Notes: generated from the sequence alone by a model not told the origin. A stretch of 64,000 nt of DNA from Candidatus Omnitrophota bacterium (GCA_021735655.1 JAIPGM010000004.1:64001-128000); one strand, 5' to 3'; shown: positions 50,871 to 63,808, counted from the stretch's first letter. Translations and numbers: made by a program.

Positions 50871-51266
50871 CTATTCTTCCTCATTTACAAAAATCGCCGT
50901 TCCTTTAACAACCTTGGCATTTACAGGCGCAACCCATATTGCACCACTCCCATAACCACCGGCCATAGTAGATGTCTGAGTTCCCGTATTTGTTAATAAC
51001 ACACCGTTTGCGCCGATTTTTGCCGCTTGTTTTTTAAGCTCCGCAACTGCATAATCTTGTGAGTCTTGATCCGTCCATCCCGAATCACTTGATGCTTCAA
51101 CAACCCCAAGCACATCATATTTCTTTGGTTCCTCTAAATAAAGCTTTACTGATTGTGGATCCGTAGATGGCCGGGCAGTTCCAGTAAGGATAACACTACC
51201 CGTTGCACAGCCTATGAGAAACGAAGCTACTAGGCAACAAACAATAATTTTGGAATATTGTTTCAT
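50871..51266 (-). CDS. lipoprotein, hypothetical
   Basis: Lipobox LIGC after signal peptide. Confidence 0.45.
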   Translation of the reverse strand: MKQYSKIIVCCLVASFLIGCATGSVILTGTARPSTDPQSVKLYLEEPKKYDVLGVVEASSDSGWTDQDSQDYAVAELKKQAAKIGANGVLLTNTGTQTSTMAGGYGSGAIWVAPVNAKVVKGTAIFVNEEE

Positions 51267-52027
51267 CTTTTTGCCCCCTCTATTTTTTCTTTATCAGAAA
51301 ATATGGAAATAACAGAAGCTTTGTTGTTGTCACCGCCAAACCATATCCAAAACACATTGTCATCTGAAGTCATCATCGCACCGGTATATTTAGAGAACAT
51401 ATTTTTAGGGTTTGCTTCCTTAAAAGCATCCAAAAATTCGGGATAAAAAATCTCATCAAATTTTACCAAAAATTCATCTCTATTTTTAATTTCGCCGAGA
51501 TCTGTGTTTAATGGGTAATAAACCATGTTGGAGACTTTTTCTTTGTCTCGATTTAGGACTGATCTTTTGAAATCTTGGGCAAAATTATCCACCATTTCAT
51601 CATCGTCCATTCCGCCAATAGCATACATGGAATTCAAATCGCCTGCACTGCCATAATCCATTTTAAGCCTTATATGCCCAGTTGCTTCCGCAGAACTTAT
51701 GTCTCCCGCAATAACTTCACGATTCAGCTTGGAATCTCCATAAGCGTCATCTTGATCTTGAAAAGACGCATTGATCACTATGCCATCCTCATTTTTTAAA
51801 GTAATTTTTCTGCCATCAAGAGTTCCGGAAAGCGGAATGCTCATATAATCCGAATCAAAATATAACTCACCAATTACATTCTCCTGATCATATACAAGAG
51901 TTAATCCACCAGTTTGACCTGCAATGTCGCCCCTGTATGTCCAGTGCCAATCTTTGGTGAATGAATCACAATGCCCCTCTGCGCCAGTGAACAACAGACA
52001 AAAAACAAATATAAGCAATGCCCGCAT
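51263..52027 (-). CDS. secreted hypothetical protein
   Basis: Signal peptide; 254 aa; 4-nt overlap with downstream gene. Confidence 0.4.
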   Translation of the reverse strand: MRALLIFVFCLLFTGAEGHCDSFTKDWHWTYRGDIAGQTGGLTLVYDQENVIGELYFDSDYMSIPLSGTLDGRKITLKNEDGIVINASFQDQDDAYGDSKLNREVIAGDISSAEATGHIRLKMDYGSAGDLNSMYAIGGMDDDEMVDNFAQDFKRSVLNRDKEKVSNMVYYPLNTDLGEIKNRDEFLVKFDEIFYPEFLDAFKEANPKNMFSKYTGAMMTSDDNVFWIWFGGDNNKASVISIFSDKEKIEGAKR

Positions 52028-52029
52028 TC

Positions 52030-53340
52030 CTAGACCTCTTTTTCCTTTAAGAAATCAAGTACGGGCTTGAATTTCTTTATTGTACTGATGATTTCGCCCT
52101 CTAACTCTACTGATTCTGTAAGCACCTTAGTTCCTCTGTCAATAGAATACCTAAAGTGTATACCGGGAGCCCCCGGCTCTTTATCCGCTTTTTTCAAAAC
52201 ATCACAAATATATTGAACGTCTTTTTGCGTATTAATATCACTCAACTTCATTTCAAAGAATTTAACCCATTTTTCATTGCCGGGCATTATGCGTTTCCCT
52301 GTTCTCGGCAAACGTTTTGAAACTACCAGCCTCGATTCCTTTCTGGCACCGCTTATAACCTGAAGGAATTTATTTGTATTTGTAGATATCCGATTAAAAA
52401 ATATGCCGATAGGGGTCTTACTCTGAGATGTCCGACCGTTGCGGACAACAGTGTTGATATCCAAACAACTCTTTGAAACCTCAATAGTAAAATTACATTG
52501 GTTAAAAACGTCCTTGCCATCCTTTGGTCTTTTAATTGCGACCCAAGCAAACCTCTCATCCTTGCCACTTCTCGATATGTTCCCGGGCTTAATAAATGAA
52601 TATTCAGAACCGATTTCTTTCGGCAGTTTTTCTTTTATGATATTTGCCAGAGCTTTAAGTTTTTTCCTGAGAATAGGGACGTAATACGGATTGGGGTCAA
52701 TCCAAAAATCAAAATCCGAGTCTTTGAATCCATTAAATTCGGTCATTACGACTACCTCCATGTAATCAATAAACTGCTCAATTAATTGTGCAACCGCAGA
52801 TAGCGATTTATTTCCTTTTATTTTCTCAACTGTGCGACGGCATATTTTATGAACCTTCGACCAGCTAAGGTATCTAACACGGTTATCGCTAATGCTATTT
52901 AAACTGCTTTTGTCATCTAAATTGTTCGTTATAACAACAAGGACATCTTTAGCACCTATATCGCTCAAATGCCGTCTAATTTGATCAAGATCCAATCTTG
53001 CCCGAACTTTCGATTCAATATGGATATTGTAATCTGCCAAATCGATCAAAGCATCAGGTCTGCTACCGCTTAATCCTTTCTGCAGTTTAAAAGAAACCAC
53101 CGGGCGATTTGGTGCCTCGATTGCTTTTAAGAATCCAGACAAAAGGTCGACAAAACCTGCCTGACAGCAAAATTCGAATATATTGACCAGCCCTTTGGTA
53201 GTGTTATCCTCAACTTGGAAATCATACAAGGATTCTTTATCTCGCTTAGAAGGCCCCCGGTAATAAAAAAATATGTTCTGATGAGGATCTCTCACGCTTT
53301 TCTCCCATATTCGGTCTTTAAAAATTTGCCATAAGCCCAC
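52030..53340 (-). CDS. PD-(D/E)XK nuclease-fold protein with unknown C-terminal domain (candidate defence effector)
   Basis: RPDALIDLADYNIHIESK is a PD...D...ExK arrangement near the N-terminal third; 436 aa. Confidence 0.45.
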   Translation of the reverse strand: MGLWQIFKDRIWEKSVRDPHQNIFFYYRGPSKRDKESLYDFQVEDNTTKGLVNIFEFCCQAGFVDLLSGFLKAIEAPNRPVVSFKLQKGLSGSRPDALIDLADYNIHIESKVRARLDLDQIRRHLSDIGAKDVLVVITNNLDDKSSLNSISDNRVRYLSWSKVHKICRRTVEKIKGNKSLSAVAQLIEQFIDYMEVVVMTEFNGFKDSDFDFWIDPNPYYVPILRKKLKALANIIKEKLPKEIGSEYSFIKPGNISRSGKDERFAWVAIKRPKDGKDVFNQCNFTIEVSKSCLDINTVVRNGRTSQSKTPIGIFFNRISTNTNKFLQVISGARKESRLVVSKRLPRTGKRIMPGNEKWVKFFEMKLSDINTQKDVQYICDVLKKADKEPGAPGIHFRYSIDRGTKVLTESVELEGEIISTIKKFKPVLDFLKEKEV

Positions 53341-53885
53341 AGGGCTTCATCAAGCCGCTTCCATGCAACCCCTTTTTTGCATAGCTCATTAAAAAATGGG
53401 GCATACTCCGCAAAATATATTTGTTCTTTTTGCTTGTTGCTATTTGGAATTTCATTGCGTCGGTTTTGACTCAAAAAGATAAAAGCCCTATAAACATGCT
53501 GATCAAATATCGGGAAATCATTCGGCGTGATTATGTGTAAAAGATATATTTTCCAGATAGCTCCGTTTACAAAACTGAAATCTTTTAAGAAAGAATCGAG
53601 GGAAAAAAAGTCCTTAAGGTTATTGATGACATTCAGCTTGGCTTTAATATTCGATAGCACTACTTCTTTTTTCTGGGATAGTTTACTCCCATTTTTCCAA
53701 ATAAATAATTTATCAATATCATCGATGCTGAATTTTTTCTTTCCGATAATAGGGACGTAATAATCTTCCATAGGATAGTTATAAAAACTGCTCCAGAATT
53801 TAACAAACTCATCTATTGTGACATTTTTTGTGTTTAAAACCGGGAAATTCATTATTGCTCCGTTAAATTTTCCCCACTTGGACAA
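53292..53885 (-). CDS. hypothetical protein, probably co-transcribed with the PD-(D/E)XK gene
   Basis: 197-aa ORF overlapping the downstream gene by 49 nt; no recognised motif. Confidence 0.35.
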   Translation of the reverse strand: MSKWGKFNGAIMNFPVLNTKNVTIDEFVKFWSSFYNYPMEDYYVPIIGKKKFSIDDIDKLFIWKNGSKLSQKKEVVLSNIKAKLNVINNLKDFFSLDSFLKDFSFVNGAIWKIYLLHIITPNDFPIFDQHVYRAFIFLSQNRRNEIPNSNKQKEQIYFAEYAPFFNELCKKGVAWKRLDEALWAYGKFLKTEYGRKA

Positions 53886-53932
53886 TAGGCTTCATCAGAA
53901 AAAACATTGTGCAAAATGTTATGATTTTACTT

Positions 53933-54430
53933 TTACTCATTCTTCTCCTTTTTTCCGTTCTTTATTACCTTTTCTAATGCGTGGATAACTTTATCGACTT
54001 GAATGTTTATATCACGCTTTATTAGATGCTCCCATAAACGGACCACAATCCACCCTTTTCTTTTTAAAAATAGAGTGGTTTTTTTGTCTCGCAATCGATT
54101 CTTTTCTATTTTTGTTTTCCAAAAATCATTCTTTAATAAATGCTTCCAGCGAGAATACTGCCAACCATGCCAAAAATCGCTATCTAAGAAAACACACAGT
54201 TTAGCTCTTTTAAAAACGATATCTGGCTTCCCTTTTATAAGTTGCACATTTCTCTCAAATGTTTTCCTTGTTCGTTTTTTTAATGCGCGAATGAAATCTT
54301 CCTCAAATTTTGTGTCTCGAGACCGTATTTTTGACATTACAACAGAACGGTGTTCTTTTGTGATTTTGTCTGATTCTCGTTTTTTCTTAAAATTGCGACC
54401 TAAATAGTTTTTGATTCTTCTCTTTGTCAT
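53933..54430 (-). CDS. vsr: very-short-patch-repair endonuclease (Vsr)
   Basis: TKEHRSVVMSKIRSRDTKFE...GKPDIVF...VFLDSDFWHGW...NDFWKTKIEKNRLRD...GWIVVRLWEH matches the Vsr signature throughout. Confidence 0.85.
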   Translation of the reverse strand: MTKRRIKNYLGRNFKKKRESDKITKEHRSVVMSKIRSRDTKFEEDFIRALKKRTRKTFERNVQLIKGKPDIVFKRAKLCVFLDSDFWHGWQYSRWKHLLKNDFWKTKIEKNRLRDKKTTLFLKRKGWIVVRLWEHLIKRDINIQVDKVIHALEKVIKNGKKEKNE

Positions 54431-54433
54431 AGC

Positions 54434-55609
54434 CTAATAAGACAATCCATATTTCTTCATTGCTTCTTTTAGTAATGGCGGTGATTTCCGTTCACCAAAA
54501 GCGTCCCCTAAAAGATGTACTATAAATTTCTCAGTTTTAGGTAAAATAACACTTGAATGCTGAACGACTAAACTCACCCATTTATCAACCAGTTCTTTTG
54601 TTCTTATATATTCCTTTAATTCCCAATAGTGCCTGACCTCGTCAACCGTGAGTTTTGAAACAATTTCAATAATTTCTTTAGCGTTTCTTTGGAGGTAATA
54701 AAATATCTTTGGAATCTTATGGTACGCCACGTCATTAATAACAATTGTCTGTTGTCCTCCAGCGGTAAATCTATCTCTAAGCGAAGAATCCACCACACCA
54801 TGACGAGCCGCTAACCAAGTCGCGAAATTTTGATATTTTGTTTGACTCCTACCAAATATCTCAGGGAATCTTGCCATAGCTTCATTTCTAAAGCGATTCT
54901 GTTTATCTTCATGAAGATTGCCCCACAAAGTAACTGTGGGACTTAGCATGGCGTCAACTTCATCCCCGGGATCCATCCACCAAGGTTCTTCTCCTTTTTT
55001 AGAAATTTTGCGAAAATAACGAACAACTTCCTTAATCGGATTATCTTGTTTCCGCAAAATGTTATATTCCGTTCCCATCTTATCAAATATGGTTTTCCCA
55101 GAATCAAGCTCCATATCTATCAAATATCTCGGGGAATGGGTTACAGCGATGTCGTAAAGACATTCTTCATATCTTCGAAACTTAAACTTTGGTGGAGCGA
55201 CCAGTCTTCCAAAAAATAGATATATTCTTTCAACGCCTTCAACTCTTGTTGTTTCAAGGACACTATTGCCAGTACTACGCCAATGATCTTGTTTGGTAAT
55301 TTTTACTTCCACTCCGTAATATCGTTTCGCCACTATATCTGGAAATTTATGCCCTGATATAAGTTGTATCGTTCCTTCAAATTCAGTTTTTTTCGATGAA
55401 ATCAACATAGAACCGTAGACTTCTTTTTCAAAATCTGATGAAGATAATCCGCAATAGCGCTTTGGAGCTTTTGACGCTTCATCTTGAATGGTTTTAATCC
55501 CACCGTTCAATAAAGTCTCAAAAGAATTCTCACTCGCTTCTGTCCTTTTAGATATAATCATTTTAATCCTTTCTTGAAAATCTTTGGCCATAGCTCCTGT
55601 AGACGCCAC
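54434..55609 (-). CDS. putative type II restriction endonuclease (inferred from position between C5-MTase and Vsr)
   Basis: No motif recognised. The M-R-Vsr gene order is known from HpaII-type systems. 52-nt overlap with the MTase suggests a later start. Confidence 0.35.
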   Translation of the reverse strand: MASTGAMAKDFQERIKMIISKRTEASENSFETLLNGGIKTIQDEASKAPKRYCGLSSSDFEKEVYGSMLISSKKTEFEGTIQLISGHKFPDIVAKRYYGVEVKITKQDHWRSTGNSVLETTRVEGVERIYLFFGRLVAPPKFKFRRYEECLYDIAVTHSPRYLIDMELDSGKTIFDKMGTEYNILRKQDNPIKEVVRYFRKISKKGEEPWWMDPGDEVDAMLSPTVTLWGNLHEDKQNRFRNEAMARFPEIFGRSQTKYQNFATWLAARHGVVDSSLRDRFTAGGQQTIVINDVAYHKIPKIFYYLQRNAKEIIEIVSKLTVDEVRHYWELKEYIRTKELVDKWVSLVVQHSSVILPKTEKFIVHLLGDAFGERKSPPLLKEAMKKYGLSY

Positions 55610-56847
55610 GCCACATTAAAAGCTAATAATGGTGGCACAGCGTTGCCAATCACTCTGTAACCATCTGATGGGCTCAAAGCAAACTCCGATCCTAAAACCG
55701 AAGCGCTTCTCGTAAAAGCGAAATCATCGGGAAAGGTTTGAATTCTGGCGCATTCTCGAACTGTCAACCGTCGCTCTTTTAGCCCCATATCAATTTCTTT
55801 AAGATTTTTTCCGCCATGCTCTTTCGACAAACGTCTAAATTCTATATTCCCATGATGTTCAGCTCGAATCGTTGGCCCTAATCCCATCACATTAACTTCA
55901 CTTTGTCCTTGGCAATGTTTTCCATACCACTTAGCTCTTGAATAAGCTTTTTGAGAGGGGTCATTCGAGAATTCCGGTTCTTTCAGTCCAACAAAAGCGT
56001 CTTTAACTTTTACAAAGGGCAATAAGTGTGAATCTTCACTAATTTCACCATGCGTTCTTGGGGGATATGGGTTAAAGCACGAATCATCACTCAATAAGGT
56101 TAATTGTTCAATAGCTTTTCTAGTCAGAGCATCCCTTCTAAAACCGATAAAAACTACCCTCTCTCTAGTCTGGGGGGCACCATAATCCTGCGCTCTTAAT
56201 ACTTTAGCGTTAACAACCAAATAACCATTATCTCCAATAGATCCAAAATCATTTTCGATAATCTTCTTAGCGTCGGATAAAGATACTAGCCCCTTGACAT
56301 TTTCGGCAAGAAATACTTTTGGCCGGACAATTTCAATAACAGCTCTCATCCACATGTAAAGCTTCCCCCGATTTTCTTCTGATGGTTCCTTGCCGTTTAA
56401 CAATCCTCCATGATGTGCCTTGTGAGAATTAAAACCTTTGCGTTTTCCCGCCACGCTAAAATCTTGACACGGGAAACCACCAGTAACCAAATCAACTCTC
56501 GGAAAGACTCTCGCCGCTCCTGAAGAATGCTTCCTAACTAAATCAACAATACTTTCAGAATGAAAAAGCGATCCATTTTTTCCTTCTTTATCAAAATAAG
56601 GAACCCAACCAGCTTTAGCCGATTGTAAAATATCATTGGCAAAAACTGTTTTAAACACTGTTTTTGGCAATCGAACCCAATGCTTATTTATAGGATTTTT
56701 TAACCAATCTGGATGAATTATTGGATTAATGGATTTTTTAAGAACGATGAAATCACCTTCAAAACCTAAATCCATACCACCGCAACCAGAGAACAATGAA
56801 AGTACTTTCAACGTTTGTGTCTTTTTTTTCATTTTTAGTCCTATCAA
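55558..56847 (-). CDS. DNA (cytosine-5)-methyltransferase
   Basis: Motif I LSLFSGCGGMDLGF, motif IV GGFPCQDFSVAG, motif VI FLAENVKGL, plus variable region and C-terminal motifs. Confidence 0.9.
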   Translation of the reverse strand: MIGLKMKKKTQTLKVLSLFSGCGGMDLGFEGDFIVLKKSINPIIHPDWLKNPINKHWVRLPKTVFKTVFANDILQSAKAGWVPYFDKEGKNGSLFHSESIVDLVRKHSSGAARVFPRVDLVTGGFPCQDFSVAGKRKGFNSHKAHHGGLLNGKEPSEENRGKLYMWMRAVIEIVRPKVFLAENVKGLVSLSDAKKIIENDFGSIGDNGYLVVNAKVLRAQDYGAPQTRERVVFIGFRRDALTRKAIEQLTLLSDDSCFNPYPPRTHGEISEDSHLLPFVKVKDAFVGLKEPEFSNDPSQKAYSRAKWYGKHCQGQSEVNVMGLGPTIRAEHHGNIEFRRLSKEHGGKNLKEIDMGLKERRLTVRECARIQTFPDDFAFTRSASVLGSEFALSPSDGYRVIGNAVPPLLAFNVAWRLQELWPKIFKKGLK

Positions 56848-57566
56848 TTTTCCATAAACCCTTCATCAGCAAAGCTGAAGAAAGAATTATCACCAATTAT
56901 TACATGATCCAAAAAGTCAATTTTTATAGACTTGCTCACATTTAGAATATCCTTTGTTAAATTTCGATCGTCAATACTTGGATCACAATTCCCAGAAGGA
57001 TGATTGTGAGCGCAAATAAATGAACTAGAGCAACACTCTAGAGCCTTATGAAATATTTCCCTAACAATAGGATTAACTTCATCGACTGTTCCTTTTCCAA
57101 GCTCAACGATATTTATCAATCGACTCTTGGTGTCAAGATAAAGAACCTTAAATTCTTCTTTCTTTAAATCACGCATGCGAGGCGATAATAAGGTAAACAC
57201 ATCTTTGGCATTTTCAATCCTAATTTTTTTGGGAATGATTTTCCCTTCATGGAATCTTTTGCCAATTTCTATCGATGCTCGTATTTGAGCTATCTTAGCG
57301 ACACCAAGACCTTTAAACTCTTTCCAATCCAAATCCCCAGCCTGACTTAATTCCCGGAAAGAACCAAACTTTTTAATTACAGAACGAGCTAAATCCAAAG
57401 CGCTCTGTCCTCGTATCCCAATACGAAGAATAATTGCTAATAATTCGGCATCGCTTAAAGATTCTTCTCCTTTTTTTAAAAGCTTCTCTCTCGGTCGGTC
57501 ATCCACCGGCCAAGCGCTTATTCCTGATGGTTTTCTAGTCTTTGTTTTTCCCAATTTTATACCCAA
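56844..57566 (-). CDS. RadC-like JAB/MPN domain protein
   Basis: RPREKLLKKGEESLSDAELLAIILRIG, HNHPSG, DPSIDDRNLTKDI...IDFLDHVII. Start codon uncertain (TTG/GTG; no early ATG). Confidence 0.85.
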   Translation of the reverse strand: MGIKLGKTKTRKPSGISAWPVDDRPREKLLKKGEESLSDAELLAIILRIGIRGQSALDLARSVIKKFGSFRELSQAGDLDWKEFKGLGVAKIAQIRASIEIGKRFHEGKIIPKKIRIENAKDVFTLLSPRMRDLKKEEFKVLYLDTKSRLINIVELGKGTVDEVNPIVREIFHKALECCSSSFICAHNHPSGNCDPSIDDRNLTKDILNVSKSIKIDFLDHVIIGDNSFFSFADEGFMEN

Positions 57567-57602
57567 TTTAATCCCTCGTTTAATCCCTCATTTAATCCCT
57601 CA
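57567..57602. repeat. 3 tandem 12-bp direct repeats TTTAATCCCTCN immediately upstream of radC
   Basis: tttaatccctcg / tttaatccctca / tttaatccctca. Confidence 0.7.
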
Positions 57603-57619
57603 CGCACGCCAAATCATAC

Positions 57620-57820
57620 CTATTCCAGTACATCCCAATGTCCGCTTTTTCTCGAGCCAATACGCTTCAAAAAACCTTCTTCCTTTAGCTTGGCAATGGC
57701 ATTTTCCACTGTTCGCTGTGATAGCTGTATCTGATCCGCAATTTCATACGTTTTTATAAAAGAATCTGCCTCAATGGCGTTTAAAACTTTCTCCGCGTTT
57801 ATTCCGCACTTCTTCCGCAT
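57620..57820 (-). CDS. small winged-helix DNA-binding regulator
   Basis: 66 aa; IADQIQLSQRTVENAIAKLKEEGFLKR is an HTH plus wing. Confidence 0.6.
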   Translation of the reverse strand: MRKKCGINAEKVLNAIEADSFIKTYEIADQIQLSQRTVENAIAKLKEEGFLKRIGSRKSGHWDVLE

Positions 57821-57845
57821 TTCTTCCGCATTTTCTACCGCAATT
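57791..57845. repeat. 5 tandem about 11-bp repeats (minus-strand TGCGGAAGAAa) straddling the start codon of the wHTH gene
   Basis: Minus-strand read tgcggtagaaaa tgcggaagaaa tgcggaagaag tgcggaataaa cgcggagaaa. The ATG at 57818-57820 lies in the 3rd unit. Confidence 0.7.
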
Positions 57846-57856
57846 ACACTCTCATT

Positions 57857-58957
57857 TTAAACTATCCTTTTCTTGCTTCTTTTTTTTGAAGGTTTTTTAC
57901 TGATTTGCGATTCCACCAAAAAACGCTCACGTTTTAACTCTTTGACAAGCTCGTCTTCCGTTGGCAAATATAACTTATACCTCGAGGCAAATATCTGTTT
58001 GTTATCTTTAGGCAACGTGTACCTGACAACAGCGTCTTTTTTATCTTCGCACAAAATAAGTCCAACTGTTGGATTGTCATCTTTCTGTTTCATGGATCGG
58101 TCGTAATAGTTTACATACATCTGCATTTGTCCGATATCCTGATGAACTAGTTTCCCAATTTTTAAATCGATAAGGACAAAGCATTTCAAGATAGTATTGT
58201 AAAAAACCAGATCAACATAAAAATGATCGCCATCCAATGTAATGCGTTTCTGTCTGCCTACAAATGTAAATCCTTTTCCAAGCTCAAGCAAAAACCTGGA
58301 AAGGTTATCAATAAGCGCCTGTTCCAGCTTGCTCTCGTATAATTTTGAGTGAGGAGATAATCCGGTAAATTCTAAAACATAAGGATCTTTTATCATATCT
58401 TCATATGTTGCCAGCTCTTGTCCTTTGCGAGCCAGCCTCATAAGACCTTTTTTGTCTTTGCTTAAAGCAAGCCGCTCATAAAGAAGTGTTCCTTTTTGTC
58501 GTTCAAGTTCGCGAGCTGACCAATTATTAGCGACGCACTCCGCCTCATAAAAGGATCTTGCATCAGGCTTGTCGACTCGCATCAATATTCGATAATGCGT
58601 CCAGCTCAATTCTTGACGCACTGCGTCAAGAATTGGATATGCTAAATAAAACTTTCGCATATTCGTCAAATTCGTAAAATCAAAGCCCTTGCCAAATTCA
58701 TCTGAAAGTCGATGGGACAAATCTTCTATTGTTTTCTTTCCATATCCTGCGCGCTTCTTGCCTTTCTGTTCTTCTTCGACAATTTCTTTTCCGATATGCC
58801 AATAGGCTAAAACCATCTCCGTATTAACAGCGCGGGCGATATTGTTTCTTGCGTTCTCAATAATTGCGCAGATTCGTTCGTACGCATTTGTTTTATTATT
58901 AACTCTCTTTTTGGCGATACTTCGAGAGCTTTTTTGAATGGCTTTTTTTCGTGGCAT
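57857..58957 (-). CDS. YhcG/DUF1016-family PD-(D/E)XK nuclease
   Basis: C-terminal FVGRQKRITLDGDHFYVDLVFYNTILKCFVLIDLKIGKLVHQDIGQMQMYVNYY is the DUF1016 core. Confidence 0.75.
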   Translation of the reverse strand: MPRKKAIQKSSRSIAKKRVNNKTNAYERICAIIENARNNIARAVNTEMVLAYWHIGKEIVEEEQKGKKRAGYGKKTIEDLSHRLSDEFGKGFDFTNLTNMRKFYLAYPILDAVRQELSWTHYRILMRVDKPDARSFYEAECVANNWSARELERQKGTLLYERLALSKDKKGLMRLARKGQELATYEDMIKDPYVLEFTGLSPHSKLYESKLEQALIDNLSRFLLELGKGFTFVGRQKRITLDGDHFYVDLVFYNTILKCFVLIDLKIGKLVHQDIGQMQMYVNYYDRSMKQKDDNPTVGLILCEDKKDAVVRYTLPKDNKQIFASRYKLYLPTEDELVKELKRERFLVESQISKKPSKKRSKKRIV

Positions 58958-59135: not shown

Positions 59136-59516
59136 AATTTTACACCTCGTGGAGTTATTGACTATGTATTACCATATTCAAAACAGCATTAGTCCCTATT
59201 TTAGTACTATTAAACCCAATGGTCAAGCAAAATGCTCATAAACACTGCAATTACGATAATGCCGGATTATGCCCCGGATTTATAATCCCGCACCTCTGAT
59301 ATATCATTTCCCACGGCTAAAGACTCAAAATAATCGACTTTTGCGGAAATCTAATCAATTTCGGCGTATCTTGAAGCTGAAATGACCCAAAATAACTCCT
59401 TATTATCATTTAAGCCAGTAAATGATAATATGGCATTTTCTTATTATCACTTCCTTATAAGATTTGTGATGAAAATGGGCTCCGGATCAATTATCCTCAC
59501 ATCCGTTGTAACAGCC

Positions 59517-59564
59517 AAAACACGACAACACGACATTTTTCATGTCGTATAATGTCGTGTTTTT
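59517..59564. promoter_or_regulatory. palindromic operator-like element with four ACACGACA/TGTCGT half-sites and an embedded TATAAT
   Basis: aaacacgacaacacgacatttttcatgtcgTATAATgtcgtgtttt, inside a 490-bp non-coding stretch. Confidence 0.5.
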
Positions 59565-59625
59565 CAGGCTATTTTCGCCTTAAAAATTAGCTCTAAATAT
59601 CCATAACACACATAAATACAAGCAT

Positions 59626-59880
59626 TTACGCAATATTAGGCTTTTTGCCATCACCAGACAATAGGACATGACATCGATTTTTTATTTTAAGGTCACTGAC
59701 AGACTGCCCCTCGCCCGACCCTCGGCAAACCCCCATGGTAAGGACCCATCTTTTTATGGCTTCCGGAGTTATATTCAGCTTAAGCTTCACCTCATACCCA
59801 TCAGGTGATTTTATCGTCACATAGGTCCAGAAGCCCGGCTTCCATTTCTTCTTTTTACGCTTATATCTGTACCATCCCAT
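59626..59880 (-). CDS. hypothetical protein
   Basis: 84-aa ORF; Lys-rich N-terminus. Confidence 0.35.
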   Translation of the reverse strand: MGWYRYKRKKKKWKPGFWTYVTIKSPDGYEVKLKLNITPEAIKRWVLTMGVCRGSGEGQSVSDLKIKNRCHVLLSGDGKKPNIA

Positions 59881-60024
59881 AGATCACGTCCTTTTAAAAT
59901 GCGTGCGGAGAAGGGCGTCAAGGAGGTTTACCAAAACAACGCCCCTTATCAGTCGCATTTAACTGATAAAACCTCTGCGATGGAACAGTTAAGCATCGCA
60001 TACAGTTTCCCCGCATTATTTGTT

Positions 60025-60699
60025 TTAATCAATAACCGCTTCCTTTTTTTCCACAGGTTGAGGTCGATATCTTTTCATGATCTGGCGAATTTCTTTCTCA
60101 AGATCAAAGTTTGAAACCCAGTTGCTTTTACTTCTGATTTCTTCCTCAACATCAGCCACAGTAGGACGGTTTAACCCAGCGATAACCCTGTCTTTTTCAG
60201 CATGAAATACATCATACGCCTCAGTGCCTAAGCTCGGGCTAAATGCCGGATATGATTCCAGATCACGCTTTGTCACCGCAGGGTGTCCATGTAAAGCAAA
60301 AGCCAATCCAAAAAGTTTTCCTTTTGCTTTCCAGAGATCAAGTTTTGCCTTATCACGGTCACGATTAAGGCGTTTTCTGATCTCTATAACTTTCTGAGAT
60401 TCATCATCTTTCAAAGTGGTGAAAGCATCCTCAAGTTTTTCTTTTAGCTTCTCAAGGCTTTCGGACACCACGTCGAGATTGATATTGCATTCCTCCAAAG
60501 CTGAATCCGCTTCTTTTACAGCATTTGGATTAGCTTTTTCACCGCACATAATCCTGCTTCTGATTTCTTTTGCTTTTTCTTTAGCGTCTTGTTTTTCTTT
60601 TTCACATTGCTTCTGCTTCTCCTCAAGAGCTACGATCTGCTCGGCGATCTCATCTGGCGTGCTTTTGTCTTTTAACACATTTAAAAAATTAAGCTTCAT
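60025..60699 (-). CDS. hypothetical coiled-coil protein
   Basis: 224-aa ORF; charged heptad-like N-terminal half. Confidence 0.4.
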   Translation of the reverse strand: MKLNFLNVLKDKSTPDEIAEQIVALEEKQKQCEKEKQDAKEKAKEIRSRIMCGEKANPNAVKEADSALEECNINLDVVSESLEKLKEKLEDAFTTLKDDESQKVIEIRKRLNRDRDKAKLDLWKAKGKLFGLAFALHGHPAVTKRDLESYPAFSPSLGTEAYDVFHAEKDRVIAGLNRPTVADVEEEIRSKSNWVSNFDLEKEIRQIMKRYRPQPVEKKEAVID

Positions 60700-60703
60700 T
60701 GTC

Positions 60704-61117
60704 TTATCTCCTTTTTTTAGGTGCGGTTATTGATAATGCTTCTTCAAACGGACAATCCGTTTCGTTCTGATACTTTCGAGCACGCCAAACATGATCAAGC
60801 TGTTCTGCGATTACCACACTGCCTGAATCTGCTTCTTTTTCCGGTGCGGTCTTACTTAAAGCGTCAGTTAACGTGCATTCAAATTTCTCACGGTACTCAT
60901 ACGCTTTCTTTAAGTGGTCAAGACGGACATCGCCTTCACTCGCCATGCTATCGTTCTTCTTAGCAGTCGCCTGCAAGGCTTCTGTGAGTGAACAGTTGTG
61001 CCTCATCATATAAAGATTAGCGTCAATTAAATGAACGAGTTGTTTTTCTTCAGTTGACCCCGGAACATACCGGCTGTTCATCCCGCTTATTGTGTTTAAT
61101 AAATGAGCTTGTTTCAT
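60704..61117 (-). CDS. hypothetical protein
   Basis: 137 aa; GGAGG SD 8 nt upstream; 4-nt spacer to the downstream gene. Confidence 0.4.
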   Translation of the reverse strand: MKQAHLLNTISGMNSRYVPGSTEEKQLVHLIDANLYMMRHNCSLTEALQATAKKNDSMASEGDVRLDHLKKAYEYREKFECTLTDALSKTAPEKEADSGSVVIAEQLDHVWRARKYQNETDCPFEEALSITAPKKRR

Positions 61118-61210
61118 TTTTTATTCCTCCTGTTTTTTTGTTTATCCACACTAAAAATATCCTTAATTTTCAATCCATAATTACATCATTTTCACCCCCT
61201 TTTCTGATGA

Positions 61211-61510
61211 TCGTGAGCGTTGTGAACGTCGATTCCACTACTTTCTAAATCCCTCTTTACGCCTCTTTTACACCCCTTTTTTGTGACTTTCCTGACCCTT
61301 TCCCTTATATTTTTCTTTTTTTAGAACAGAGGGGTTTTTACGTTCACAATGTTCACAAACCACACAAATCCTTGTAGATTAAGAAGTTAACCACTGAGCG
61401 TAGGTGTGACCGTAGACTCTGGACGTTCACAACGTTCACACTTTTCAGTACGGTCTCGGGTCCTCACGGTCACAACGCTCACCGACGTTCACACCGACGC
61501 TCACACCATT
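61211..61510. repeat. iteron field: about 11 copies of CG(T/C)TCACA(A) in direct and inverted orientation (P4 type-I-iteron-like), putative replication origin
   Basis: Copies: gtgagcgttgtgaacgtc (61215-61232); cgttcacaatgttcacaa (61341-61358); gacgttcacaacgttcacac (61423-61442); cggtcacaacgctcaccgacgttcacaccgacgctcacac (61467-61506). Confidence 0.65.
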
Positions 61511-63808
61511 TTCAAAGAGCGAATTGCCCTTAGTTTTCCGTAAAATAAACAGCTTCCTGCCGGTACCGGCTTCACGTTTATTACTACGTAAAATATCAAT
61601 CCCCACACTCCTCATAACAGGTGCGATACGCATAAGTTCAGAAGCTAAAGCCCTAGCATTAGCGGGAATTGTTTTATCAAATCCTGTCTCAGGCTGAACA
61701 CTTGAAAGAAGCGTAGTCGCAGAACCTGCCCATTCACCACCGTTAAATTCCACAAGATAAGTAAGCCTCTGTGCAAGCGTGCTTTCTTCGGCAGTATCTT
61801 CCCATTTATGATCAACCGACTCCTGATACTTCTGTAAAAACTCATCCTGTGAAAAGCCTAAATATCCCGACAAGCCTGAACCCCATTTAGCGAAATCCGA
61901 CATCCTGAAACGTTCATGCCCTGATACTCCGTCAACAATAGCCATAGCTTTTGAAAGGGCGGTAAAGAATCCGCCGAGAATGCCCGGCAAAGAAGCCCTC
62001 CACTCATCAGCGATTTGTTTTTCAGGTCTTGTTTCTTTGAGAATAGGAATATCGAATATTATTGATCTATCTAAAAGGTCGGGTCGGCAGATGGAACTGC
62101 CTATGCCGTTTAAAACAAAACATCTGCGGTACGTCCTTATAAATTCTTCGTCATTAGTGTAGAGTGACCGTTTCATGTCGCCTTCACCGGTTACCGCACG
62201 ACATAAAAAATCACTGAACCATTCAGATACACGAGAGAGATTGTCGAAGTTATTCACCCAATGCTTATCAGCGATCATCTGAGCCTGTTCTAAGTCTTTG
62301 GGAGCCGAAATTGACATTACTTTTGACGGATCACATAAACTTTTTATTAATCGGGAATTATTTGACTTACCAGTGCCTTGCTCGCCGAGTTGGACAGGTA
62401 TAACATGGGGAATATCAGGAATGAAAAACGTAGCTATAACCGTCATAAAAAGGCAGGCGTCATCTTTATTAATATTACAGAAGTCTAAAAGTTTTATCGG
62501 ATCAAATCCTTTAACAGGCATGACCTGCTCAGACTGGTGAGGGTAACGCTTAAATATCGGCGGGAGAAAAACAATTTCCCAGCCGTCTTTTGTAATCACA
62601 ACTCCACGCCAGTCTTTAGTCGTAAGGTCGTAATAAATCGCTCCGTTATACCAGCCTACACGGTTATACAGCTCAATCTGCCGACCGCCTTCGCATTGTG
62701 CCTCAACCTGAATACGTGCCTGTTTTAACGCCTCATTGCCCGGAGGATGACCGAAATCCCTGCGGTACCGCATTGCAAAACAGTTCCTGAAACGTGAACT
62801 GCTCGTCTGGCATACTTCAAAGTGTTTATCATAAGGAAGGACAACATAAGGATTGCCCTGCTGATCGGAAAAATATTCCGTGATCATTTCTTCACAGTCC
62901 CGGGTTATTATCTCGCCTTGAGTAAGCTTCTTTTGCTTAGGAGTGTTTGAAGCAGTAAATTCGTCCTTAGTATCCTGAATCGCTTTATCAATTGCCGATT
63001 CTCCGTATGTCTTGCCATCGCTAAAATGCTTCTCATCCCACTTTGATCGCATAAGACCAGAGTGACGGAACAAAGAATCCATCCCCACAGAATCTTTGCC
63101 AGTCCAAAAGGCGAGTTTATTGCATAAAGCAAGATCCGCTTCTGATTGGGAAGGATAATCATCCTGCCATCTGCCTTCATATAATTTAAAGAAACTATCT
63201 GCGTCTTTGCTTTTCCTGATCCTGTTAAGGAGAGATTTTACTTTCTTATTCTCCGCGTCCAGATTTTCAAGATGTTCATACAAGGCTTTGAGCTTGTCGG
63301 AACATTCGACAATCTTGTCATTACAGCCCTTAACAATGTCTCCGGTCGTAATAAGAAATCTATTCCCTGAATACATCTCCACATTAAACGAGCTGAACTT
63401 GCGGTCTCTGGGAAGCGTGCCTTTGCAGATAGTGTGAAGTCCTGTTCCGCTGACTGAATATTCTGTGTAACTGTTAAGCTCGGATATTATTTTTTGGACG
63501 AAAGGCGTAATAATTCCGTCTTTAATACAGTTATCAAAATCTATTCCCGCATGTGGCGATCTAAGGGCAAAACCGATAGCATCAAATTTCAAGATTTCAG
63601 CTTTGGATAAAACCACATCCAACGCACACCATGTCTTTGGATTATTTGATTGGGCATGTCCGCCGGTAAGCGCATTGATAGGTTCTTTCCGTGGCTTTTT
63701 ACCTTTTTGAGGAACAAACCGGAAGCCCACCCATATAGGCAAGTCTTTCATTTCCTGCGGTATATTTTCCACATACCATTTCTTCTCTTTTCTTCTCTCT
63801 TTCTTCAT
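61445..63808 (-). CDS. replicative primase: N-terminal bifunctional prim-pol domain + P4-family primase C-terminal P-loop (D5/SF3-like) domain
   Basis: Prim-pol region IWVGFRFVPQKGKKPRKEP...DAIGFAL. Walker A GEQGTGKSN. The last ~20 codons (GVSVGVNVGERCDRE...) are translated from the iteron repeats. Confidence 0.75.
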   Translation of the reverse strand: MKKERRKEKKWYVENIPQEMKDLPIWVGFRFVPQKGKKPRKEPINALTGGHAQSNNPKTWCALDVVLSKAEILKFDAIGFALRSPHAGIDFDNCIKDGIITPFVQKIISELNSYTEYSVSGTGLHTICKGTLPRDRKFSSFNVEMYSGNRFLITTGDIVKGCNDKIVECSDKLKALYEHLENLDAENKKVKSLLNRIRKSKDADSFFKLYEGRWQDDYPSQSEADLALCNKLAFWTGKDSVGMDSLFRHSGLMRSKWDEKHFSDGKTYGESAIDKAIQDTKDEFTASNTPKQKKLTQGEIITRDCEEMITEYFSDQQGNPYVVLPYDKHFEVCQTSSSRFRNCFAMRYRRDFGHPPGNEALKQARIQVEAQCEGGRQIELYNRVGWYNGAIYYDLTTKDWRGVVITKDGWEIVFLPPIFKRYPHQSEQVMPVKGFDPIKLLDFCNINKDDACLFMTVIATFFIPDIPHVIPVQLGEQGTGKSNNSRLIKSLCDPSKVMSISAPKDLEQAQMIADKHWVNNFDNLSRVSEWFSDFLCRAVTGEGDMKRSLYTNDEEFIRTYRRCFVLNGIGSSICRPDLLDRSIIFDIPILKETRPEKQIADEWRASLPGILGGFFTALSKAMAIVDGVSGHERFRMSDFAKWGSGLSGYLGFSQDEFLQKYQESVDHKWEDTAEESTLAQRLTYLVEFNGGEWAGSATTLLSSVQPETGFDKTIPANARALASELMRIAPVMRSVGIDILRSNKREAGTGRKLFILRKTKGNSLFENGVSVGVNVGERCDREDPRPY

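Follow-up and report, generated by a model that had tools for sequence, protein, structure and literature searches.

Does the interval between positions 52030 and 56847 of the DNA analysed here hold one defence system or two, and what could the pair of unnamed genes at its end contribute to the fight against phages? The interval belongs to a Candidatus Omnitrophota bacterium (GCA_021735655.1, JAIPGM010000004.1:64001-128000), from which a stretch of 64,000 nucleotides (nt), hereafter called the window, was analysed; all coordinates are positions in this window. The initial annotation had described a Dcm-type C5-cytosine DNA methyltransferase (MTase), a putative restriction endonuclease (REase) and a Vsr protein, next to a PD-(D/E)XK protein with a small partner. 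Our own reading, held with slightly less than even confidence, is that a mobile element carries two independent defence modules next to each other among its cargo. Module A (57566-53933) is very probably a conventional type II restriction-modification (R-M) operon with the gene order RadC-C5-MTase-REase-Vsr. Module B (53852-52030), which consists of one gene for a small and one gene for a big protein, is probably a defence unit.

Phages evade restriction enzymes by chemically modifying their bases, and it was reportedly only in experiments from 2024-2025 that bacteria were seen to counter such modified phages by means of glycosylases (Brig1, Dag) and of nucleases that carry a fused, glycosylase-derived sensor (END). 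Module B would sit between the Dag-type and the END-type solution, with a glycosylase-like protein that carries catalytic-type residues and with the nuclease as a separate subunit. If this is confirmed, a large family that sequence searches overlook (about 1,200 clusters at 50% identity) would have to be added to glycosylase-based immunity, and sensor and effector modules would be seen to be exchanged between systems.

Translation of the window returned the five open reading frames (ORFs) of the initial annotation on the minus strand and at the coordinates given there. Three starts were shifted with respect to the longest-ORF calls, based on the lengths of homologues and on the start contexts. 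The big protein has 421 instead of 436 amino acids (aa) and begins at a GTG (53295) whose GTGA overlaps the stop of the small gene; the small protein has 186 instead of 197 aa and begins at an ATG (53852) that follows a GGAG site; and the REase has 375 instead of 391 aa, its start (55561) forming an ATGA overlap with the MTase stop. The overlaps of about 50 nt in the earlier reading are artefacts of the choice of the longest ORF, and the true overlaps are 4 nt. Thus, the overlap of the small gene with the gene for the PD-(D/E)XK protein stands, but the lengths of both proteins had to be corrected. A scan for promoters and terminators gave counts equal to the shuffled expectation and was uninformative.

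The two proteins of Module B

Neither the big nor the small protein has an above-threshold match in Pfam, NCBIfam, PADLOC or PHROGs, and neither the proteins nor their family profiles gave a significant sequence match in the PDB. The N-terminal domain of the big protein has the PD-(D/E)XK core fold together with the catalytic motif: D81, E94 and K96 (D...ExK) are invariant in 69 homologues, in line with the PD...ExK core that had been recognised from the start. The C-terminal domain had been described as unknown. This still holds for sequence models, since even Pfam DUF1054 is not matched at E values up to 0.1, but the fold can now be placed and is that of YktB/DUF1054 (UPF0637; 2a8e, 3mqz). 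In contrast to these proteins, the domain is here fused to a nuclease. The pair is not a housekeeping nuclease, a possibility against which the initial annotation was to be checked; it has no family match and occupies a slot of the mobile element in which the cargo varies. In a 1.9-kb contig (P0200), an N-terminal fragment of an SNF2 helicase is joined to the C-terminal half of a member of the big-protein family; this could be an assembly chimera or a real fusion.

Structure prediction, which had been proposed for the gene at 53292-53885, gave a very confident all-alpha model of the small protein (pLDDT 95.8, from an alignment of 73 sequences). The closest structures are archaeal-type 8-oxoguanine glycosylase/lyases of the Ogg2/AGOG type (3n0u, 3knt, 3fhg); the top Foldseek matches, MjaOgg and SsOgg, are not significant (E 0.2, TM 0.44). 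Likewise, a search of the PDB with the profile of the small family reached Ogg 3n0u at E 0.4, which is suggestive only and not significant. The profile pairs 'WK..H...PIFDQHVYRA' of the small family with 'GWKEASHFLRN...AILDKHVLRL' of 3n0u and thereby aligns K101 and D117 with the WK...D segment of the latter. By reference to K129 and D147 of MjaOgg, this segment presumably contains the catalytic Lys/Asp pair of Ogg2 enzymes.

The model and the conservation pattern can be compared with this assignment. In the model, a helix (98-108) is followed by a loop (109-117) and a second helix (118-129), and the loop/Asp segment aligns with AILDKH of 3n0u. The loop is rich in Gly and Pro and ends in the Asp, with P110 conserved in 89%, P114 in 99% and D117 in 100% of the sequences. 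Invariant in the family are D117, H119, R122, D168, W52, K53, N54, K62, H106 and G175, and K101 is kept in all 34 members that are at least 47% identical to the window protein. The helix-loop-helix is thus present in the model, and the sequence signature of its hairpin is degenerate: the canonical glycines (LPGVG-like) were not found, the hairpin position being S, G or K, with G97 in 13 of the 73 sequences. The Pfam models HhH-GPD, OGG-like and AGOG did not match the window protein at E values up to 10; a single one of the 73 family members matches AGOG (E 0.0056). With moderate confidence, we consider the small protein to be HhH-GPD-like.

A profile search found the small family in about 1,217 clusters at 50% identity, distributed over many bacterial and archaeal phyla. 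Two domain fusions were seen in this family (P0425 and P0296): a UDG-superfamily-like domain at the N-terminus of one, whose match (E 1.2e-4) narrowly misses the Pfam cut-off, and a DUF6884/YaaA-like domain at the C-terminus of the other.

Linkage of the two genes

The contexts that were found first contained pairs of 185/186 and 412/421 aa with the same 4-nt overlap, located near type I R-M systems, orphan MTases and an integrase island. For a systematic view from the side of the big gene, an iterative hidden Markov model (HMM) search with a recruitment threshold of E<1e-3 was run over every ORF of 100 aa or more from 87 loci that contain this gene. Ten ORFs joined the small-family profile, and each of them is an immediate neighbour of the big gene (10 of 97 adjacent versus 0 of 485 non-adjacent ORFs). 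They are almost always located upstream and on the same strand, and where a small-family gene lies upstream, the 4-nt overlap recurs in six of the eight other loci, or in seven of nine including the window. The pair is retained over a protein divergence of ~50-75% and in several phyla. The linkage of small and big gene is therefore specific and recurrent, but not obligate.

The position upstream of the big gene is also used by other genes. When the big protein is required to be at least 40% identical, 31 loci remain, and in 14 of them the big gene shares a 4-nt overlap with the ORF upstream; seven of these ORFs belong to the small family, the rest to other families of ~170-270 aa. The second-commonest partner family is an ORF of 220-233 aa (L006, L106, L114, L121, L122), mostly with the 4-nt overlap. 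It carries 'SKLLHFIFPHLLMPMDRS', which is reminiscent of 'FLLHII.P..YPIFDQH' in the small family, a homology without statistical support. A pattern 'LLH..P...P.D' is common to the partners in L006, L110, L117, L145, L108 and L137. The iterative HMM search for homology among the partners added only L158, L148 and L112, and in hhalign comparisons only L124, L164 and L125 scored above the 99th percentile of the controls, with one control equally high. The idea that nearly all upstream partners are diverged HhH-like proteins stays a hypothesis, since the hhalign scores of the other partners were barely above those of non-adjacent controls.

Further contexts of the Module B genes comprise type I R-M systems, integrases and McrBC-like genes. 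Seen from the side of the small gene, in ~13-16 loci, mostly from Bacteroidota, it is located inside a type I R-M operon in the order hsdM-small-hsdS-hsdR (L030, L032, L047, L064, L067 and L076 are among the loci with the gene between hsdM and hsdS). Comparable positions between hsdM and hsdS are known to hold other accessory defence genes. This arrangement suggests that the small gene gives the operon a second line of defence of its own, directed at phages that evade classical restriction through their modified DNA. Elsewhere, the small gene directly precedes other PD-(D/E)XK proteins, either of the PDDEXK_4 type (5e-17) or NucS/HSDR_N-like with DUF5655. These two types were considered as homologues of the big protein and rejected, since no homology is seen beyond the PD...ExK core. 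Neither the big nor the small gene was found in phage collections.

Proposed mechanism of Module B and rival explanations

How could the two proteins work together? According to our model, the small HhH-GPD-like protein would flip out a non-canonical (hypermodified) base in invading DNA. It would probably also excise this base and leave abasic sites or nicks, as suggested by the Lys/Asp pair that it keeps at the catalytic positions of Ogg2. The nuclease with its PD-(D/E)XK and DUF1054-fold domains, presumably in physical contact with the small protein, would then be recruited to, or licensed at, these lesions and turn them into double-strand breaks; the phage genome would be destroyed and the unmodified host DNA spared. 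That excision precedes cutting in just this way is the more doubtful part of the model, and we consider it possible rather than probable. It is tempting to speculate further that Module B represents a modular class, in which a constant PD-(D/E)XK-DUF1054 effector is coupled to interchangeable small readers and in which the commonest reader would be a catalytically competent HhH glycosylase of a new family whose excision activity licenses the nuclease. In this extended form the proposal is unlikely to hold. If it were true, it would describe a two-step process of excising and then cutting that is seen neither in Dag (glycosylase alone) nor in END (inactive fused sensor), and it would give the DUF1054/YktB fold a first functional context, for example in the binding of a lesion or of the partner.

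The closest known systems are the END nucleases and the Dag glycosylases. END nucleases restrict phages with hypermodified DNA and consist of a catalytically inactive EndoIII/Ogg-like HhH sensor fused to PLD, a NucS-like PD-DExK nuclease or McrB (Yee et al. 2025, PMC12191111). END-Mag, a PD-DExK-iEndoIII fusion, targets phages with modified G, and the sensor domain is devoid of the EndoIII family's catalytic residues according to the authors (PMC12191111). Module B has in common with them the combination of an HhH base reader with a PD-(D/E)XK nuclease, the location in a defence island, the modularity of sensor and nuclease and, by analogy, possibly the hypermodified phage DNA as target. However, END nucleases are single polypeptides, whereas Module B has two translationally coupled genes; the END sensor has lost its catalytic residues, whereas in the small family D117 is invariant and K101 is kept in the clade of the window protein; and the nuclease of Module B carries the DUF1054-fold domain in addition, all this being a comparison by description. 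With two polypeptides and retained catalytic-type residues, Module B thus lacks two defining features of END.

Dag proteins are small (~190 aa) glycosylases of the HhH superfamily that are encoded on integrons, were missed by sequence searches and destroy phage DNA containing 7-deazaguanine as single-gene effectors; in Dag1, K118, D184 and W188 are essential and D132 makes a partial contribution (Getz et al. 2025, 10.1101/2025.10.29.685425). The spacings between K101, D117, D168 and W172 of the small protein are 16, 51 and 4, compared to 14, 52 and 4 in Dag1, which is a similarity of spacings only and not of an alignment. Here, too, a small HhH-like protein is found on mobile DNA, and the small family likewise consists mostly of single genes; the difference, again judged by description, is that the clade of the window is coupled to a dedicated nuclease. 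By these analogies, Module B is best read as resembling an END system split over two genes, or a Dag-type glycosylase that has a nuclease of its own, and is a demonstrated member of neither. It would represent a variant of the recently recognised immunity that is based on glycosylase folds and depends on modification, and not something categorically new.

Several observations weigh against our model. Distant small-family members have R, N or Q in place of K101, so that lyase chemistry is not a family-wide property. The small gene is present without the big gene in 77 of 80 species-level loci (3 of 80 have it), and a small-family gene lies upstream of the big gene in only 8 of the 31 loci mentioned above, the other 23 having no detectable small-family gene. 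A literature search on the function of DUF1054/YktB found nothing. Finally, a PADLOC (2023) search of the pair, as advised in the initial annotation, recognised neither protein, and this silence fits novelty and an absent defence role equally.

The strongest competitor, although unlikely, is a split END in which the small protein is a non-catalytic reader of hypermodified bases that licenses the nuclease. In END systems, among them a PD-DExK fusion directed against modified G, the inactivated EndoIII/Ogg domain serves for sensing alone (PMC12191111), and such a role would agree with the loss of K101 in distant members and the degenerate hairpin glycines. The tight coupling of the big gene to variable upstream partners is also what exchangeable sensors predict. 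But the END sensor is reported to have lost the catalytic residues, whereas D117 does not vary in the small family and K101 is kept throughout the clade that is paired with the nuclease. Moreover, D168 and W172 resemble the essential D184 and W188 of Dag1, and most small-family genes have no nuclease gene next to them, which means that the protein must be able to act alone.

Less probable still is that Module B consists of a Dag-like single-gene glycosylase and a solitary nuclease that are neither related nor functionally coupled, each a defence gene in its own right, and that have become neighbours only because they share a cargo hotspot. The many loci with only one of the two genes speak for this view, as does the fact that Dag glycosylases work singly (10.1101/2025.10.29.685425); in Woesearchaeota, the big gene even follows an unrelated gene for an AsnC regulator that ends ~75 nt upstream. 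On the other hand, chance neighbours would hardly account for the exclusive adjacency of small-family genes in big-gene loci, for the same-strand upstream position with the 4-nt overlap or for the retention of the pair over large protein divergence, and the small family recurs beside two other PD-(D/E)XK families as well.

We consider it improbable that the small protein is no relative of HhH-GPD proteins at all, its all-alpha match being coincidental, and that Module B is another nuclease-based system such as a toxin-antitoxin or abortive-infection pair. Least probable of all is a DNA-repair accessory, for example a Mig-like mismatch or damage glycosylase with an AP-site nuclease that shields the host from side effects of methylation and restriction, because Vsr already covers T:G repair here, Module B is absent beside the RadC-M-R-Vsr cassette in three other genomes (L096, L097, L099), the R-M operons that host the small gene are of type I (hsdM/hsdS/hsdR) and methylate adenine, so that no deamination problem of 5-methylcytosine arises in them, the distribution is sporadic and linked to mobile elements rather than to the core genome, and a sister element has CBASS-type genes in the equivalent slot.

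The restriction cassette and the mobile element

The initial annotation had called the MTase and Vsr of Module A unambiguous, and this is confirmed by family models. The MTase matches PF00145 (8.9e-50), TIGR00675 (9.7e-46) and PADLOC MTase_II (PDLC03378, 1.4e-70). Motifs I (FSGCGG), IV (PCQ), VI (ENV), VIII (QTRER), IX and X (GNAVPP) were all found by eye, and the closest solved structure is M.HaeIII (7e-25, catalytic core only). Vsr matches PF03852 (1.9e-16; 60.1 bits versus a cut-off of 27) and PADLOC Vsr (4.3e-11). With NCBIfam TIGR00632 it reaches 89.6 bits and stays under the cut-off of 97.85, although it is above that of Pfam; apparently, it is a divergent member of the Vsr family. By eye, it reads FLDSDFWHGW at a site where the E. 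coli protein has FTHGCFWHHH, and by this comparison it appears to be devoid of the zinc-site residues.

The gene between them had been regarded as lacking a recognisable motif and, at the same time, as the best candidate for the cognate endonuclease. The first statement has to be revised: the protein has a motif FPD-x9-EVK in which P74, D75 and E85 are conserved to at least 90% and K87 is invariant among 44 homologues. The second is well supported, by the match to PADLOC REase_II (PDLC03508, 1.6e-36; residues 28-355 on profile positions 4-322 of 340), by the PD-x9-ExK motif itself and by its linkage to MTase genes. Five other genomes or plasmids have a homologue of the REase beside a C5-MTase, in some cases together with Vsr. 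In three metagenomic contigs or contigs of metagenome-assembled genomes (L096, L097, L099) the order RadC-MTase-REase-Vsr is identical, with RadC directly upstream of the MTase; a Klebsiella plasmid (L014) has MTase, REase and Vsr, the REase homologue being annotated as 'restriction endonuclease'; and in Parabacteroides (L015) MTase and REase are present, with the REase homologue directly after dcm. Vsr follows the REase in L096, L097, L099 and L014. The M-R-Vsr order that the initial annotation had noted is therefore conserved, with RadC as an additional first gene, but its comparison with HpaII-type systems has to be given up as far as the enzyme family is concerned: an REase of the HpaII type was rejected because no Pfam model of a restriction enzyme matches the protein.

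Indeed, the REase matches nothing in Pfam or NCBIfam, and neither the protein nor its family profile has a significant sequence match in the PDB. There are 1826 homologues, mostly of 375 aa; among the best 120 of them none bears a functional name, the only name given to any of these being 'hypothetical protein'.

RadC and the MTase are joined by a TTGA overlap, and the stop of the REase is separated from the start of Vsr by 3 nt. The 4-nt overlaps and the 3-nt spacer indicate that Module A is a single operon, which includes RadC, a gene beyond the range of the initial annotation. Vsr is followed after ~80 nt by the small gene of Module B. The flanks of the cassette in L096, L097 and L099 are wholly different (RloB/AAA_15 and CBASS-type genes; DpnI and a transposase; AbiEii and an antitoxin). 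Since the four genes recur with unrelated flanks, the mobile unit is the four-gene cassette including RadC.

Module A would function in the usual way: the C5-MTase would mark the host DNA, the 375-aa REase would cut unmethylated sites and Vsr would repair the T:G mismatches that arise from deamination of 5-methylcytosine. As in other type II R-M systems with C5-MTase and Vsr, the MTase, a PD-(D/E)XK REase and Vsr are encoded in a single operon, and the trio is also found on the Klebsiella plasmid. What differs is that the REase belongs to a family without a Pfam or NCBIfam model and that RadC is a conserved fourth member. Module A is ordinary, its novelty is limited to the unnamed REase family, and it matters only because annotation pipelines label this family 'hypothetical'.

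Immediately 5' of the TTG start of RadC, on the minus strand (57567-57601), there are three perfect tandem copies of GAGGGATTAAA with a period of 12 nt, just downstream of the gene for a 66-aa winged helix-turn-helix (wHTH) protein. The repeat may be an operator for the R-M operon. It was not found upstream of RadC in L096, L097 and L099.

The GC content of the window gave no island signal. The mobility of the element is evident instead from a comparison with the contig L096, whose REase is 97% identical. Four blocks are shared: the primase-polymerase (71% DNA identity), a block of 1.9 kb (90%), RadC-M-R-Vsr (92% DNA identity, window 57549-54026) and a block of 150 nt (window 49366-49217). The primase-polymerase and the adjacent genes for proteins of 137 and 224 aa (59326-63808) are common to both elements and represent the backbone of a mobile element that has the two modules among its cargo. 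The genes around the cassette differ. Upstream of RadC, the window has a YhcG/DUF1016 gene together with the wHTH gene, whereas L096 has AAA_15 and RloB. Downstream of Vsr, beyond a breakpoint inside its 3' end at ~54026, the window has Module B, four small genes of the secreted, lipoprotein or superinfection-immunity type and a CoiA-like gene, whereas L096 has lipase, patatin and SMODS (CBASS-type) genes. Since the slot of Module B holds CBASS-type genes in the sister element, Module B is located in a hotspot of defence cargo. The features of the region are listed in Table 1.

Table 1 Genes of Modules A and B and of their surroundings (the genes from 51263 to 57566 lie on the minus strand).
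Feature	Length	Coordinates	Basis or remark
NrS-1-type primase-polymerase	787 aa	61445-63808	shared with L096
YhcG/DUF1016 PD-(D/E)XK protein and winged-helix protein	66 aa (winged-helix protein)	57620-58957	PADLOC candidate system PDC-S02, 6.8e-151; second variable cargo slot
RadC-like JAB-domain protein	240 aa	56844-57566	PF04002 3.9e-38, NF000642 4.5e-67; first gene of Module A
C5-cytosine DNA methyltransferase	429 aa from TTG (~424 aa from internal ATG)	55558-56847	family models, motifs
Type II restriction endonuclease, PD-(D/E)XK type	375 aa	54434-55561 (ORF extends to 55609, 391 aa)	PADLOC REase_II
Vsr very-short-patch repair endonuclease	165 aa	53933-54430	PF03852, PADLOC Vsr; last gene of Module A
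Small partner of Module B, all-alpha, probably HhH-GPD (Ogg2-type)-like	186 aa	53292-53852	fold model, profile
Big partner of Module B, N-terminal PD-(D/E)XK and C-terminal YktB/DUF1054 fold	421 aa	52030-53295	
Protein with signal-peptide-like N-terminus	254 aa	51263-52027	starts 2 nt after the big-gene stop
Small genes after Module B, including the preceding one	254, 131, 81 and 82 aa	50304-52027	131 aa weakly DUF4156-like; 82 aa superinfection immunity (Imm_superinfect)
CoiA-like protein	285 aa	49450-50307	

The 254-aa protein, which has no family match in Pfam, NCBIfam or PADLOC, was considered as a third component of Module B and rejected, because the closely related L102 is the only other locus with a homologue behind the big gene; its gene is probably co-transcribed cargo and not a functional component. 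The CoiA-like protein is 43% identical to the product of a gene for 263 aa directly downstream of the big nuclease gene in L006 and L007, and this gene also comes after the big gene in L106. In the window, the four small genes stand between the CoiA-like gene and Module B, of which it may now and then be a third component.

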